From Escherichia coli (GTDB taxonomy: Bacteria > Pseudomonadota > Gammaproteobacteria > Enterobacterales > Enterobacteriaceae), in the NCBI RefSeq assembly GCF_965641715.1, contig NZ_OZ282453.1: 64,000 bases of DNA; one strand, given 5' to 3'. Below, piece after piece: positions 496 through 21,227 of this stretch. Below the pieces are notes generated by a model. It did not search any database and was not told the origin of the DNA. It worked only from the letters and a program-made list of their open reading frames with translations. The position numbers and the translations under genes are program-made. Every line of letters starts with the position of its first letter. Within the stretch, counting starts at the first letter, position 1.

Positions 496-1419
496 ATGAA
501 TAATTTACCGCTGCTGAATGATTTGCGCGTCTTTATGCTGGTGGCTCGCCGGGCTGGTTTTGCCGCCGTGGCGGAAGAACTGGGCGTTTCACCGGCGTTC
601 GTCAGCAAGCGCATCGCCTTGCTGGAGCAAACGCTAAACGTGGTGTTGTTACACCGCACCACCCGCCGCGTCACCATTACCGAAGAAGGAGAGCGGATTT
701 ATGAATGGGCGCAGCGGATTTTGCAGGATGTCGGTCAGATGATGGACGAACTTTCTGACGTGCGTCAGGTGCCACAGGGGATGCTGCGTATTATCAGCAG
801 CTTTGGTTTTGGACGACAGGTGGTGGCTCCGGCGTTATCAGCGCTGGCGAAGGCGTATCCGCAACTGGAATTACGTTTTGATGTGGAAGACCGGCTGGTC
901 GATTTGGTCAATGAAGGTGTCGATCTCGATATTCGCATTGGCGATGACATCGCCCCTAATTTAATCGCCCGCAAACTGGCGACCAATTACCGCATTCTCT
1001 GCGCGTCGCCGGAATTTATTGCGCAACATGGCACGCCGAAACATTTAACCGATCTTTCTGCATTGCCGTGCCTGGTCATTAAAGAGCGCGATCATCCTTT
1101 TGGTGTCTGGCAATTACGCAATAAAGAAGGCCACCATGCGATTAAAGTCACCGGCCCACTGTCGTCTAATCATGGAGAAATTGTCCATCAGTGGTGTCTC
1201 GATGGGCAGGGGATTGCTCTGCGTTCCTGGTGGGATGTTAGCGAAAACATTGCCAGTGGTCATTTAGTGCAAGTGCTACCGGAATATTACCAGCCAGCGA
1301 ACGTCTGGGCCGTTTATGTTTCAAGGCTGGCGACGTCAGCGAAAGTGCGGATAACGGTAGAATTTTTACGCCAGTATTTTGCCGAGCACTACCCGAATTT
1401 TTCACTGGAGCATGCCTGA
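496..1419 (+). CDS. dmlR: LysR-family transcriptional regulator of dmlA
   Basis: ORF 475-1419; internal ATG at 496 gives a 307-aa product starting MNNLPLLNDLRVF, with an HTH LysR N-terminus; divergent from dmlA. Confidence 0.9.
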   Translation: MNNLPLLNDLRVFMLVARRAGFAAVAEELGVSPAFVSKRIALLEQTLNVVLLHRTTRRVTITEEGERIYEWAQRILQDVGQMMDELSDVRQVPQGMLRIISSFGFGRQVVAPALSALAKAYPQLELRFDVEDRLVDLVNEGVDLDIRIGDDIAPNLIARKLATNYRILCASPEFIAQHGTPKHLTDLSALPCLVIKERDHPFGVWQLRNKEGHHAIKVTGPLSSNHGEIVHQWCLDGQGIALRSWWDVSENIASGHLVQVLPEYYQPANVWAVYVSRLATSAKVRITVEFLRQYFAEHYPNFSLEHA

Positions 1420-1476: not shown

Positions 1477-2184
<708 letters not shown>

Positions 2185-2267
2185 TGCTTTCAGCCCGCGT
2201 TGTCGCGGGCTTCCCATCTATAATCCTCCCTGATTCTTCTCTGATATGGTGCTAAAAAGTAACCAAT

Positions 2268-2290
2268 AAATGGTATTTAAAATGCAAATT
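2268..2290 (+). promoter_or_regulatory. Candidate NsrR-type operator in the yeaR promoter region
   Basis: AT-rich imperfect dyad aaatggtatttaaaatgcaaatt about 70 bp upstream of the yeaR ATG; yeaR-yoaG is a known NsrR/NarL-controlled operon. The match to the NsrR consensus is only partial. Confidence 0.3.
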
Positions 2291-2468
2291 ATCAGGCGTA
2301 CCCTGAAACGGCTGGAATAAACCGTTTTCAGCGCATTCACCGAAGGAGGGAAAAGGATGCTTCAAATCCCACAGAATTATATTCATACGCGCTCAACGCC
2401 TTTCTGGAATAAACAAACTGCACCTGCTGGAATATTCGAACGTCATCTTGATAAAGGAACGCGCCCGG

Positions 2469-2478
2469 GGGTTTACCC
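2469..2478. repeat. Left copy of the IS186 target-site duplication (gggtttaccc)
   Basis: Identical 10-mer directly abuts both IS ends; GC-rich target, typical for IS186. Confidence 0.7.
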
Positions 2479-3817
2479 CATAAGCGCTAACTTAAGGGTT
2501 GTGGTATTACGCCTGATATGATTTAACGTGCCGATGAATTACTCTCACGATAACTGGTCAGCAATTCTGGCCCATATTGGTAAGCCCGAAGAACTGGATA
2601 CTTCGGCACGTAATGCCGGGGCTCTAACCCGCCGCCGCGAAATTCGTGATGCTGCAACTCTGCTACGTCTGGGGCTGGCTTACGGCCCCGGGGGGATGTC
2701 ATTACGTGAAGTCACTGCATGGGCTCAGCTCCATGACGTTGCAACATTATCTGACGTGGCTCTCCTGAAGCGGCTGCGGAATGCCGCCGACTGGTTTGGC
2801 ATACTTGCCGCACAAACACTTGCTGTACGCGCCGCAGTTACGGGTTGTACAAGCGGAAAGAGATTGCGTCTTGTCGATGGAACAGCAATCAGTGCGCCCG
2901 GGGGCGGCAGCGCTGAATGGCGACTACATATGGGATATGATCCTCATACCTGTCAGTTCACTGATTTTGAGCTAACCGACAGCAGAGACGCTGAACGGCT
3001 GGACCGATTTGCGCAAACGGCAGACGAGATACGCATTGCTGACCGGGGATTCGGTTCGCGTCCCGAATGTATCCGCTCACTTGCTTTTGGAGAAGCTGAT
3101 TATATCGTCCGGGTTCACTGGCGAGGATTGCGCTGGTTAACTGCAGAAGGAATGCGCTTTGACATGATGGGTTTTCTGCGCGGGCTGGATTGCGGTAAGA
3201 ACGGTGAAACCACTGTAATGATAGGCAATTCAGGTAATAAAAAAGCCGGAGCTCCCTTTCCGGCACGTCTCATTGCCGTATCACTTCCTCCCGAAAAAGC
3301 ATTAATCAGTAAAACCCGACTGCTCAGCGAGAATCGTCGAAAAGGACGAGTAGTTCAGGCGGAAACGCTGGAAGCAGCGGGCCATGTGCTATTGCTAACA
3401 TCATTACCGGAAGATGAATATTCAGCAGAGCAAGTGGCTGATTGTTACCGTCTGCGATGGCAAATTGAACTGGCTTTTAAGCGGCTCAAAAGTTTGCTGC
3501 ACCTGGATGCTTTGCGTGCAAAGGAACCTGAACTCGCGAAAGCGTGGATATTTGCTAATCTACTCGCCGCATTTTTAATTGACGACATAATCCAGCCATC
3601 GCTGGATTTCCCCCCCAGAAGTGCCGGATCCGAAAAGAAGAACTAACTCGTTGTGGAGAATAACAAAAATGGTCATCTGGAGCTTACAGGTGGCCATTCG
3701 TGGGACAGTATCCCTGACAGCCTACAAAACGCAATTGAAGAACGCGAGGCATCGTCTTAACGAGGCACCGAGGCGTCGCATTCTTCAGATGGTTCAACCC
3801 TTAAGTTAGCGCTTATG
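2479..3817 (+). mobile_element. IS186 insertion sequence (IS4 family), about 1.34 kb
   Basis: Terminal inverted repeats cataagcgctaacttaagggttg (2479-2501) and its reverse complement (3795-3817); single transposase ORF inside; flanked by a 10-bp direct duplication. Confidence 0.9.
2534..3646 (+). CDS. insL: IS186 transposase InsL
   Basis: ORF 2528-3646; internal ATG at 2534 gives 370 aa, MNYSHDNWSAILAHIG...; lies inside the inverted-repeat-bounded element. Confidence 0.9.
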   Translation: MNYSHDNWSAILAHIGKPEELDTSARNAGALTRRREIRDAATLLRLGLAYGPGGMSLREVTAWAQLHDVATLSDVALLKRLRNAADWFGILAAQTLAVRAAVTGCTSGKRLRLVDGTAISAPGGGSAEWRLHMGYDPHTCQFTDFELTDSRDAERLDRFAQTADEIRIADRGFGSRPECIRSLAFGEADYIVRVHWRGLRWLTAEGMRFDMMGFLRGLDCGKNGETTVMIGNSGNKKAGAPFPARLIAVSLPPEKALISKTRLLSENRRKGRVVQAETLEAAGHVLLLTSLPEDEYSAEQVADCYRLRWQIELAFKRLKSLLHLDALRAKEPELAKAWIFANLLAAFLIDDIIQPSLDFPPRSAGSEKKN

Positions 3818-3827
3818 GGGTTTACCC
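3818..3827. repeat. Right copy of the IS186 target-site duplication (gggtttaccc)
   Basis: Direct repeat of 2469-2478 immediately after the right inverted repeat. Confidence 0.7.
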
Positions 3828-4068
3828 ACGCCTTTCCGTTATGCATGGGGCGGTCAAATATCTCGGCTACGCTGATGAACACAGTGCAGAGCCTGATCAG
3901 GTGATCCTTATCGAAGCGGGGCAGTTTGCGGTGTTCCCTCCAGAAAAGTGGCACAACATTGAAGCCATGACTGACGATACTTATTTCAACATTGACTTCT
4001 TCGTGGCTCCTGAAATCCTGATGGAAGGTGCGCAACAACGGAAAGTCATTCATAACGGGAAATGAATC

Positions 4069-4251
4069 ATGGGCAAAGCAACGTATACCGTGACCGTCAC
4101 CAATAACAGCAATGGCGTTTCTGTCGATTATGAAACAGAGACGCCGATGACTTTGCTGGTGCCAGAAGTGGCGGCTGAAGTGATAAAAGATCTGGTGAAT
4201 ACCGTGCGTTCTTATGACACGGAAAACGAACATGATGTTTGTGGTTGGTAA
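4069..4251 (+). CDS. yoaG: DUF1869 small protein, second gene of the yeaR-yoaG operon
   Basis: 60-aa ORF MGKATYTVTVTNNSNG... directly downstream of yeaR. Confidence 0.85.
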   Translation: MGKATYTVTVTNNSNGVSVDYETETPMTLLVPEVAAEVIKDLVNTVRSYDTENEHDVCGW

Positions 4252-20898: not shown

Positions 20899-21227
20899 CT
20901 ATTTGTTAGTGAATAAAAGGTTGCCTGTAAAATTACAAAAACCTTACGCAGCGTCAAGCGGAATCGTGTCAATCATTGCGACAAATCAATCCTGTGCCTA
21001 AGCATTACGCGACTGACTCGCCTCACTCTTCCTTTGGGCTTGAGACCACATGGGGTCGGCGCCCCGAATTTTAAAGGGCAATTACGATAAAAATGTGATT
21101 TTCATCACGATTTAGGTGCAGCCATTTCGTCGAGATCAAGTTTAGGACAAAATTTTGCCAGTTGGTGTTAATGTTTTGTTAGAATCAGTCACGTAATGTG
21201 AGCACGATTAAAGTGAGATGTGAGCAA

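Follow-up and report, generated by a model that had tools for sequence, protein, structure and literature searches.

In the window (the whole 64,000-nucleotide stretch of Escherichia coli DNA analysed here), the yeaR gene is split by a full-length IS186 element. This arrangement very probably reflects a routine and recent transposition into a preferred target within yeaR, the regulatory link between the yeaR promoter and the transposase gene being incidental. The original prediction, that IS186 divides yeaR and carries insL on the same strand as yeaR, agrees with the analysis in every feature (Table 1). Judged from the sequence, the element in yeaR is proved to be a genuine insertion and not a product of chance by its perfect 23-bp terminal inverted repeats (CATAAGCGCTAACTTAAGGGTTG at 2479–2501 and its reverse complement at 3795–3817), by the duplication of 10/11 bp of target DNA, and by a yeaR frame that can be restored: excision of the IS together with one copy of the duplication gives back a YeaR of 119 aa with a DUF1971 match. 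The junctions are the same in all 12 IS-bearing sequences compared, and nine of the 11 other strains compared have a yeaR copy with 100% identity to the window IS186. Its DNA is also identical to copies annotated with WP_001300563.1, and the coordinates of insL agree with those assigned by PGAP at the identical locus of strain 2014EL-1345-2 and with insL1 of MG1655. The element belongs to the IS4 family, has a single DDE transposase ORF and carries two annotation names, IS186 and IS421.

Table 1. Features of the yeaR–IS186–yoaG region, with positions in the window.
Feature	Position	Strand	Basis
NarL 7-2-7 activator site, yeaR promoter	2260–2275	+	exact match; centred at −43.5
NsrR 11-1-11 operator, overlapping the NarL site and the −35 region	2268–2290	+	exact match; centre 2279, i.e. 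−32 relative to the inferred start 2311
Core promoter, inferred	2276–2311	+	−35 TTTAAA 2276–2281; 17-bp spacer; −10 TACCCT 2299–2304; start ~2311
yeaR′ fusion ORF, 54 aa (41 YeaR codons + 13 IS-encoded)	2357–2521	+	reading frames; AGGAGG upstream; UGA 2519–2521
Target-site duplication, left copy, GGG(G)TTTACCC	2468/9–2478		repeat search and strain comparison
IS186 (also IS421), 1339 bp, intact	2479–3817	+	99.8% identity to MG1655 IS186A, full length
insL transposase gene, 370 aa, intact	2534–3646	+	Pfam DDE_Tnp_1 PF01609, 93.7 bits, E = 1.6e-26
Terminator-like hairpin and T-run inside IS186	3245–3264	−	terminator prediction
Target-site duplication, right copy, GGG(G)TTTACCC	3817/8–3827		repeat search and strain comparison
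yeaR 3′ fragment, codons 42–119, without an SD-led start of its own	3828–4065	+	reconstructed YeaR
yoaG, DUF1869, intact	4069–4251	+	ORF and domain match; ATG 3 nt after the yeaR stop

The loss of yeaR function that had been proposed for this locus is borne out, because IS186 cuts YeaR after residue 41 of 119 (counted from the ATG at 2357), and yeaR is null in the window strain. In other strains, PGAP annotates the corresponding 3′ part as a pseudogene. The significance of the finding is mainly one of annotation: yeaR is a pseudogene in the window strain, as in about one in 12 complete E. coli genomes.

The target preference of IS186 is GGGG(N6/7)CCCC, with insertion in either orientation and site-specific hot spots (PMC5009759). 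The empty yeaR site, GGGGGTTTACCCA, reads CCC-GGGGG-TTTA-CCC-ACG and is thus near-consensus, with three Cs, not four; aligned as GGGG-N6-CCCC, it has two mismatches in the 3′ tract. The transposase favours a G-run, a short core and a C-run, and the element inserts either way round with duplication of 10–11 bp. In these respects, yeaR resembles the IS186 hot spots in the lon promoter of E. coli B and in fimA and menC of K-12, the latter two described in K-12 mutation-accumulation lines: all share the G-run/core/C-run target, the 10–11-bp duplication, insertion in both directions, and numerous independent hits on the same base pair (PMC5009759). Unlike these sites, the yeaR target is near-consensus and not perfect, and it is situated in a non-essential gene without a known function; this location probably accounts for the survival of the insertion in 8% of natural genomes.

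Among 5426 complete RefSeq E. coli genomes, the sense junction is present in 194, an antisense junction at the same base pair in 251, and the empty site in 4963, the orientation ratio being only indicative since genomes are not equivalent to independent events. The yeaR site is occupied in 445 of the 5426 (about 8%), which corresponds to 20% of the 2209 IS186-carrying genomes and to 5.2% of the 8515 IS186 copies. These counts show a hot spot at which both orientations are equally open to IS186, the window carrying one of them; the co-orientation of insL with yeaR is therefore a coin-flip outcome of recurrent, target-driven insertion in both orientations and not a selected trait. No functional consequence is evident: the sense orientation is not over-represented, and genomes of the two orientations do not differ in IS186 copy number (median 5 vs 5, p = 0.85, in a crude comparison confounded by phylogeny).

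The recurrence of the event is best seen in K-12, where MG1655 (empty), CV601 (sense) and ET12567 (antisense) are identical over about 3.6 kb of flank. Judging from these flanks, it is evident that K-12 laboratory derivatives gained yeaR::IS186 independently and in both orientations. A single or double ancestral event for the 445 occupied genomes is contradicted by this trio. Sense copies lie on at least four distinct flank haplotypes, and the flanks in the window are 18–30 substitutions away from all others compared, with an IS identical to theirs.

IS hits in yeaR are already known from two laboratory-evolution studies, one of them explicitly with IS186. Insertions of IS186 that disrupt the yeaR reading frame, as in the window, arose in antibiotic-evolution lines (PMC6307192), and yeaR is likewise among the IS-disrupted genes in a trimethoprim megaplate experiment (bioRxiv 10.1101/527788). 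Both studies concern K-12 laboratory lines, whereas the window represents a different lineage, no complete RefSeq E. coli exceeding 99.4% identity to its flanks (best 99.3–99.4% over 9–20 kb). Orientation and read-in transcription are treated in neither report.

These experiments bring forward another explanation, namely that the loss of yeaR, or of yeaR together with yoaG, is advantageous, for example under antibiotics or in the animal gut, with IS186 acting as the most available mutagen. The recurrence of yeaR::IS186 in enrofloxacin and amoxicillin lines was regarded by the authors as non-random and attributed to selection (PMC6307192), and both the trimethoprim megaplate hit (bioRxiv 10.1101/527788) and the 8% prevalence among natural and clinical genomes point in the same direction. 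However, no resistance phenotype has been reported for YeaR or YoaG, whose function is not known (PMC6307192), the same event is found in K-12 cloning and donor strains that had experienced no such selection (CV601, ET12567 and a Dam/Dcm strain), and many-hit IS186 hot spots appear in mutation-accumulation lines free of selection (PMC5009759), so that selection as the main cause is improbable. Some contribution of factors beyond the target motif is indicated by a perfect-motif site at 21052, 17 kb away, which is occupied in 0 of 5425 genomes; hence, the motif alone does not explain the 8% occupancy of yeaR, and this occupancy may owe something to tolerance of yeaR loss or to mild selection for it. 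The site at 21052 lies in a highly conserved intergenic region, and insertions there may simply be purged.

The promoter upstream of the split yeaR is intact. The published sequences of its NarL site (TAACCAATAAATGGTA, positioned at −43.5; PMC10853779) and its NsrR site (AAATGGTATTTAAAATGCAAATT; PMC5320621) were searched in the window, and each gave an exact match. The −43.5 position of the NarL site puts the yeaR transcription start at about 2311. Relative to this start, the NsrR operator occupies the −32 position at which Lin et al. in 2007 reportedly centred it. The promoter had been described in the original prediction as NsrR-repressed and NarL/NarP-activated; the exact published sites uphold this for NsrR and NarL, while no support was found for NarP. 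The core promoter was missed by a simple sigma-70 consensus scan, an expected outcome since the promoter is activator-dependent. In CFT073, RNA-seq has revealed an approximately 160-fold nitrate induction of yeaR and yoaG (PMC5320621).

The yeaR promoter, the truncated yeaR and insL are all on the + strand, just as the sense-direction geometry had been envisaged, and read-in transcription into insL is plausible on this layout. When NO inactivates NsrR and nitrate activates NarL, transcripts from the yeaR promoter would enter IS186 in the sense direction. The stretch from the start at about 2311 to the insL ATG at 2534 has no predicted intrinsic terminator. The Shine–Dalgarno (SD) sequence of yeaR is strong (AGGAGG, 8–9 nt before the yeaR ATG), so yeaR′ would be translated up to its UGA, with some extra transposase mRNA, and possibly protein, coming from the yeaR copy. 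This UGA (2519–2521), a GUG at 2528 and the insL AUG at 2534 share one frame, the UGA being 12 nt before the AUG, which has no obvious SD; such a layout would favour translational coupling or re-initiation at insL. The SD and the in-frame UGA close to the insL AUG make the read-in case somewhat stronger than originally thought. At the same time, stops are present in all three frames ahead of insL (TAA 2481, TAA 2488 and TGA 2519), and yeaR–insL fusion proteins are thereby prevented.

It might be supposed from this layout that the sense insertion puts the transposase under nitrate/NO control, re-initiation at insL leading to more InsL and to more IS186 transposition. The intact NarL and NsrR promoter elements, the roughly 160-fold nitrate induction in CFT073 (PMC5320621), the lack of a predicted terminator between 2311 and 2534, and the strong yeaR SD followed by a yeaR′ frame that ends 12 nt before the SD-poor insL AUG are all consistent with such control, as is RNA folding, in which no significant structure specifically blocks the read-in transcripts. 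Against it are the populations, where the sense orientation is not favoured (194 vs 251) and IS186 copies are no more numerous in sense genomes (the same crude, phylogeny-confounded medians), and the three-frame stops that bar fusion proteins. Moreover, read-in transcription across the ends of IS1, IS10 and IS50 inhibits rather than stimulates transposition. Control of transposition by nitrate or NO is therefore an unlikely explanation for this insertion. Its extension to sense strains in general, where nitrate or NO (e.g., in the inflamed gut) would couple insL synthesis to stress and provoke bursts of IS186 transposition, is very doubtful.

The same precedents allow for the opposite effect, in which read-in from the yeaR promoter would silence this IS186 copy: RNA polymerase crossing the left inverted repeat would keep the transposase from binding there or the ends from synapsing, and the copy would be relatively immobile as long as the promoter is active. 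This repeat follows a strongly inducible promoter at a distance of 168 nt without an intervening predicted terminator, and an analogy is offered by IS1, IS50 and IS10, whose ends are inhibited by external transcription (in Tn10 with “two levels of protection”). The precedent is not specific to IS186, however, and NsrR represses the promoter under most laboratory conditions, which would make any effect conditional; by this analogy, silencing has a low probability.

The comparison with IS10/Tn10 and IS50 may be extended to the RNA. Like these elements, IS186 has three-frame stops before the transposase start. In contrast to them, no significant fold-back specific for read-in RNA was found for IS186 (z = −1.6 to +0.1), and its in-frame stop, being only 12 nt ahead of the insL AUG, would help re-initiation instead of hindering it. 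In the predicted folds, which covered read-in and IS-internal 5′ regions, read-in RNAs pair 2496–2511 with 2609–2625, and shorter RNAs pair 2526–2534 with 2603–2611; no IS10-like fold that would hide the insL start only in the read-in RNA was found above shuffled controls (z −1.57, −0.36 and +0.12). A perfect 11-nt complementarity between 2290–2300 and 2508–2518 was rejected, since 2290–2300 precedes the inferred start at 2311 and chance alone would give about 0.5 such matches in 2.1 kb. An Rfam scan of the region gave no match, and literature searches brought up no relevant paper on insL together with NsrR or on IS186 read-through. A preprint that ties IS186 to a large terminator family was set aside as not relevant to the yeaR locus, the family having 135 homologues in E. 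coli, far above the typical IS186 copy number.

With routine transposition into a preferred target as the favoured reading, read-in into insL is most reasonably taken for an incidental by-product and not for an evolved regulatory link. In other words, yeaR is knocked out here by insertion at a known hot spot, and the regulatory by-product is speculative. If the link between promoter and transposase were true, it would make a tidy case of environmentally regulated transposition but no new principle. If coupling to stress were true, 3.6% of genomes (194/5426) would have a stress-inducible mutator layout, while in the 4.6% with the antisense layout the copy would possibly be self-silencing.

The insertion has a further effect on the distal gene. 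The yoaG ATG follows the inferred start by 1758 nt, as compared with 409 nt in the intact operon (a shift of 1349 bp), in agreement with the “about 1.8 kb” separation from the promoter claimed before. As a result, yoaG would be deprived of translational coupling to yeaR and of most of its induced transcription, and its induced expression is likely to be lost or reduced. This is reminiscent of the classical polar IS1 and IS2 insertions in gal or lac, where an IS in a promoter-proximal gene likewise cuts the distal gene off from its promoter and removes translational coupling to it. In contrast to those insertions, the window has neither a predicted + strand terminator nor rut-like composition between insL and yoaG. 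Prediction of intrinsic terminators on the + strand gave none in the 422 nt that separate the insL stop from yoaG, and the sole + strand candidate in IS186 is a weak 5-bp hairpin inside insL (3534–3547). A check of C/G composition revealed no C-rich, G-poor (rut-like) stretch in the same interval, and no claim of Rho-dependent polarity on yoaG is made. Some induced read-through past IS186 to yoaG may therefore persist. An outward promoter at the right end of the IS that might drive yoaG was found neither by the consensus sigma-70 scan nor by the relaxed scan; the single 8/12 match of the outward search, at 3564, falls within insL.

In practical terms, yoaG is probably poorly induced in the window strain, which bears on the use of yeaR and yoaG as nitrate/NO reporters and on comparison of the NsrR regulon across strains. 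Switching or silencing of an IS copy by a host promoter is cheaply testable at this locus because a natural isogenic K-12 set exists, comprising MG1655 (empty), CV601 (sense), and ET12567 and the Dam/Dcm strain (antisense). As for the opposite orientation, the minus-strand hairpin within IS186 would act only on transcripts that enter the element from its right end.

Insertion of one complete IS186 has inactivated yeaR, leaving the transposase gene insL on the same strand as yeaR and yoaG displaced downstream of the element (see the table). The structural part of the original prediction was entirely correct: the promoter, the split yeaR, the co-oriented insL, and the displaced yoaG are all confirmed in the sequence. 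IS186 is flanked on both sides by the direct duplication GGG(G)TTTACCC and shares 99.8% identity with IS186A of MG1655; when it is taken out in silico together with one duplication copy, a 119-aa DUF1971 protein (yeaR) is recovered. The gene order around the operon is that of K-12.

Features of the interrupted yeaR-yoaG locus and its surroundings (window coordinates)
Feature	Position	Strand	Remarks
dmlR	496-1419		upstream of yeaR
leuE	1546-2184		upstream of yeaR
region with the yeaR-yoaG operon	2230-4251		interrupted by one complete insertion sequence
NarL 7-2-7 site	2260-2275		TAACCAATAAATGGTA; published sequence found in window
NsrR 11-1-11 site	2268-2290		AAATGGTATTTAAAATGCAAATT; published sequence found in window
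-35 (inferred)	2276-2281		TTTAAA
-10 (inferred)	2299-2304		TACCCT
yeaR start	2357		strong AGGAGG Shine-Dalgarno ahead
IS186	2479-3817		after yeaR codon 41; perfect 23-bp inverted repeats
insL	2534-3646	+	intact transposase ORF, 370 aa; DDE_Tnp_1 domain
yoaG	4069-4251		intact; DUF1869 match
yeaQ, yoaJ, yoaK, dgcP			downstream of yoaG

Judged by its sequence elements, the yeaR promoter has survived intact. A cryo-EM study of the NarL activation complex (PMC10853779) centres the NarL site at -43.5, which puts the transcription start at about 2311, and the NsrR site is that given for yeaR in PMC5320621. With the start so set, the NsrR site is centred at -32. This agrees with the position reportedly assigned to the operator by Lin et al. 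in 2007. Few E. coli promoters are induced by nitrate as strongly, yeaR and yoaG rising about 160-fold in CFT073 (PMC5320621). Two bases in or near the locus differ from K-12, T2240 (G in K-12), which precedes the NarL site by 20 nt, and T2428 (C in every best-matching genome), synonymous in yeaR; both fall outside known regulatory elements. Directly 3′ of leuE lies a GC-rich hairpin, CAGCCCGCG-TTGT-CGCGGGCT (2193-2213), which lacks a T-run and was therefore not called by the terminator scan; with no terminator called there, leuE transcripts might also read towards yeaR.

The insertion as such is already known. IS186 inserts, either way round, at GGGG(N6/7)CCCC-type sites, some of them struck many times independently (PMC5009759), and disruption of yeaR has been reported both by IS186 in antibiotic-evolved K-12 lines (PMC6307192) and by an IS insertion in a trimethoprim megaplate experiment (bioRxiv 10.1101/527788). 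Its prevalence comes from three 300-bp probes run against 5426 complete E. coli genomes, a match being counted from 80% probe coverage upwards. The window's own left junction, representing the sense orientation, matched 194 genomes, a synthetic antisense junction at the same base pair 251, and a reconstructed empty site 4963. There is thus no sense excess (194 vs 251), though these are counts of genomes and not of independent events, and a single K-12 laboratory family inflates the sense total by at least 19 clones; only a strong bias towards sense is excluded by them. IS186 is carried by 2209 genomes in 8515 copies altogether; one in five of these genomes has the yeaR copy, and this site alone holds about 5% of all copies.

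The window also has, in an intergenic stretch (21052-21065), a perfect GGGG(N6)CCCC motif, GGGGTCGGCGCCCC. None of the 5425 complete E. coli genomes matching the region has it filled, against 445 with the imperfect yeaR site occupied, so occupancy is not set by the motif alone. Selection for yeaR loss, suggested by the authors of PMC6307192, may contribute; however, the 300 bp around the empty motif show at least 99% identity across 5416 genomes, and insertions into so conserved a stretch may be purged. Laboratory cloning strains under no such selection have acquired the yeaR insertion too.

Repeated gain is evident from a comparison of twelve occupied and five empty loci, in which the junctions of all occupied loci are exactly alike. 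MG1655 (empty), CV601 (sense), and ET12567 (antisense) show zero differences over about 3.6 kb of flank, which implies at least two gains in K-12 laboratory lineages, one per orientation. Near-identical flanks are also found in natural isolates with sense (SCU-104, UMNK88) and antisense copies (ML35, UMNF18, RM10410, O157:H16), and clearly different flank haplotypes bear sense copies in O19:H7, O169:H41, PK8241, and the window. The window flanks are 18-30 substitutions from all other compared loci, while its IS186 is identical to copies in other strains, which points to a recent, separate insertion in this lineage. The window case is a real but ordinary IS186 at the yeaR hot spot, where both orientations are equally available. 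Outside IS186, window positions 1-24000 reach at most 99.3-99.4% identity to any of the 5426 RefSeq genomes, so the lineage has no representative among them; the differences from K-12 are a mixture of synonymous and non-synonymous ones, whereas its IS186 matches copies in other strains at 100% identity.

The original prediction had the yeaR promoter reading into insL. No intrinsic terminator is predicted between about 2311 and the insL ATG (2534), so transcripts should enter IS186 in sense orientation whenever the promoter is active. A GC hairpin and following T-run on the minus strand inside IS186 (3245-3264) resemble a terminator and would stop transcripts entering from the right end; host read-in is thus predicted to be blocked in the antisense orientation and open in that of the window. 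The truncated yeaR ORF (yeaR′) runs into IS186 in the same frame as insL and stops at UGA 2519-2521, with a GUG 6 nt further on and the annotated insL AUG 12 nt further on; four sense codons (TTT AAC GTG CCG) separate this stop from the AUG (2357-2536 region). Since insL starts in frame so shortly after the stop, ribosomes that finish the well-initiated yeaR′ ORF could start again at insL, a gene lacking any obvious Shine-Dalgarno sequence. Fusion proteins into insL would be precluded by stops that each of the three frames meets at the left end ahead of insL (TAA 2481, TAA 2488, TGA 2519). Predicted folds gave no evidence of a protective RNA structure of the IS10 type, neither those of read-in transcripts nor those of internal ones surpassing shuffled controls.

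Mechanistically, then, read-in is a reasonable idea and, on sequence grounds, slightly better supported than was realized at first. Stress-coupled transposase synthesis through translational re-initiation nevertheless appears quite unlikely, and nothing in the present evidence suggests that the promoter-to-transposase link is functional. In IS1, IS10, and IS50, transcription over an IS end tends to inhibit the use of that end, so the net effect of read-in on transposition could be negative, and by analogy read-in may silence this copy. If the sense arrangement gave more transposition, sense genomes might hold more IS186 copies; among the genomes listed, the median is 5 both in 42 non-clonal sense and in 60 antisense genomes (Mann-Whitney p = 0.85), a crude comparison confounded by phylogeny. 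The naturally available isogenic strains make the link easy to test.

The expected uncoupling of yoaG can be stated more narrowly. With yeaR uninterrupted, yoaG begins 3 nt past the yeaR stop codon, and its ATG is 409 nt from the inferred transcription start; in the window the latter distance is 1758 nt, and yoaG sits behind a poorly translated insL and 422 nt of RNA that is probably untranslated. Neither an outward-facing promoter-like site at the IS186 right end, nor a plus-strand terminator from the insL stop to yoaG, nor rut-like composition in the stretch between them was found; the sole plus-strand terminator candidate in IS186 is a weak 5-bp hairpin inside insL (3534-3547). The insertion probably weakens yoaG induction, which is likely to be reduced and altered though not necessarily lost completely.

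Other observations concern the compared loci and the rest of the window. The sense yeaR copy of UMNK88 (locus L005, 3150-4492) has four single-base insertions and bears a frameshift annotation; the insertions could be real decay or older-assembly errors. In strain 203740 (L013, 4117-4814), where the yeaR site is empty, IS1 interrupts the neighbouring dgcP and removes yoaK; this small yeaR/dgcP region collects more than one kind of IS insertion. The only Rfam match in the window at the gathering threshold is the ES036 (CssrF) sRNA (60235-60277, minus strand, 42.9 bits).
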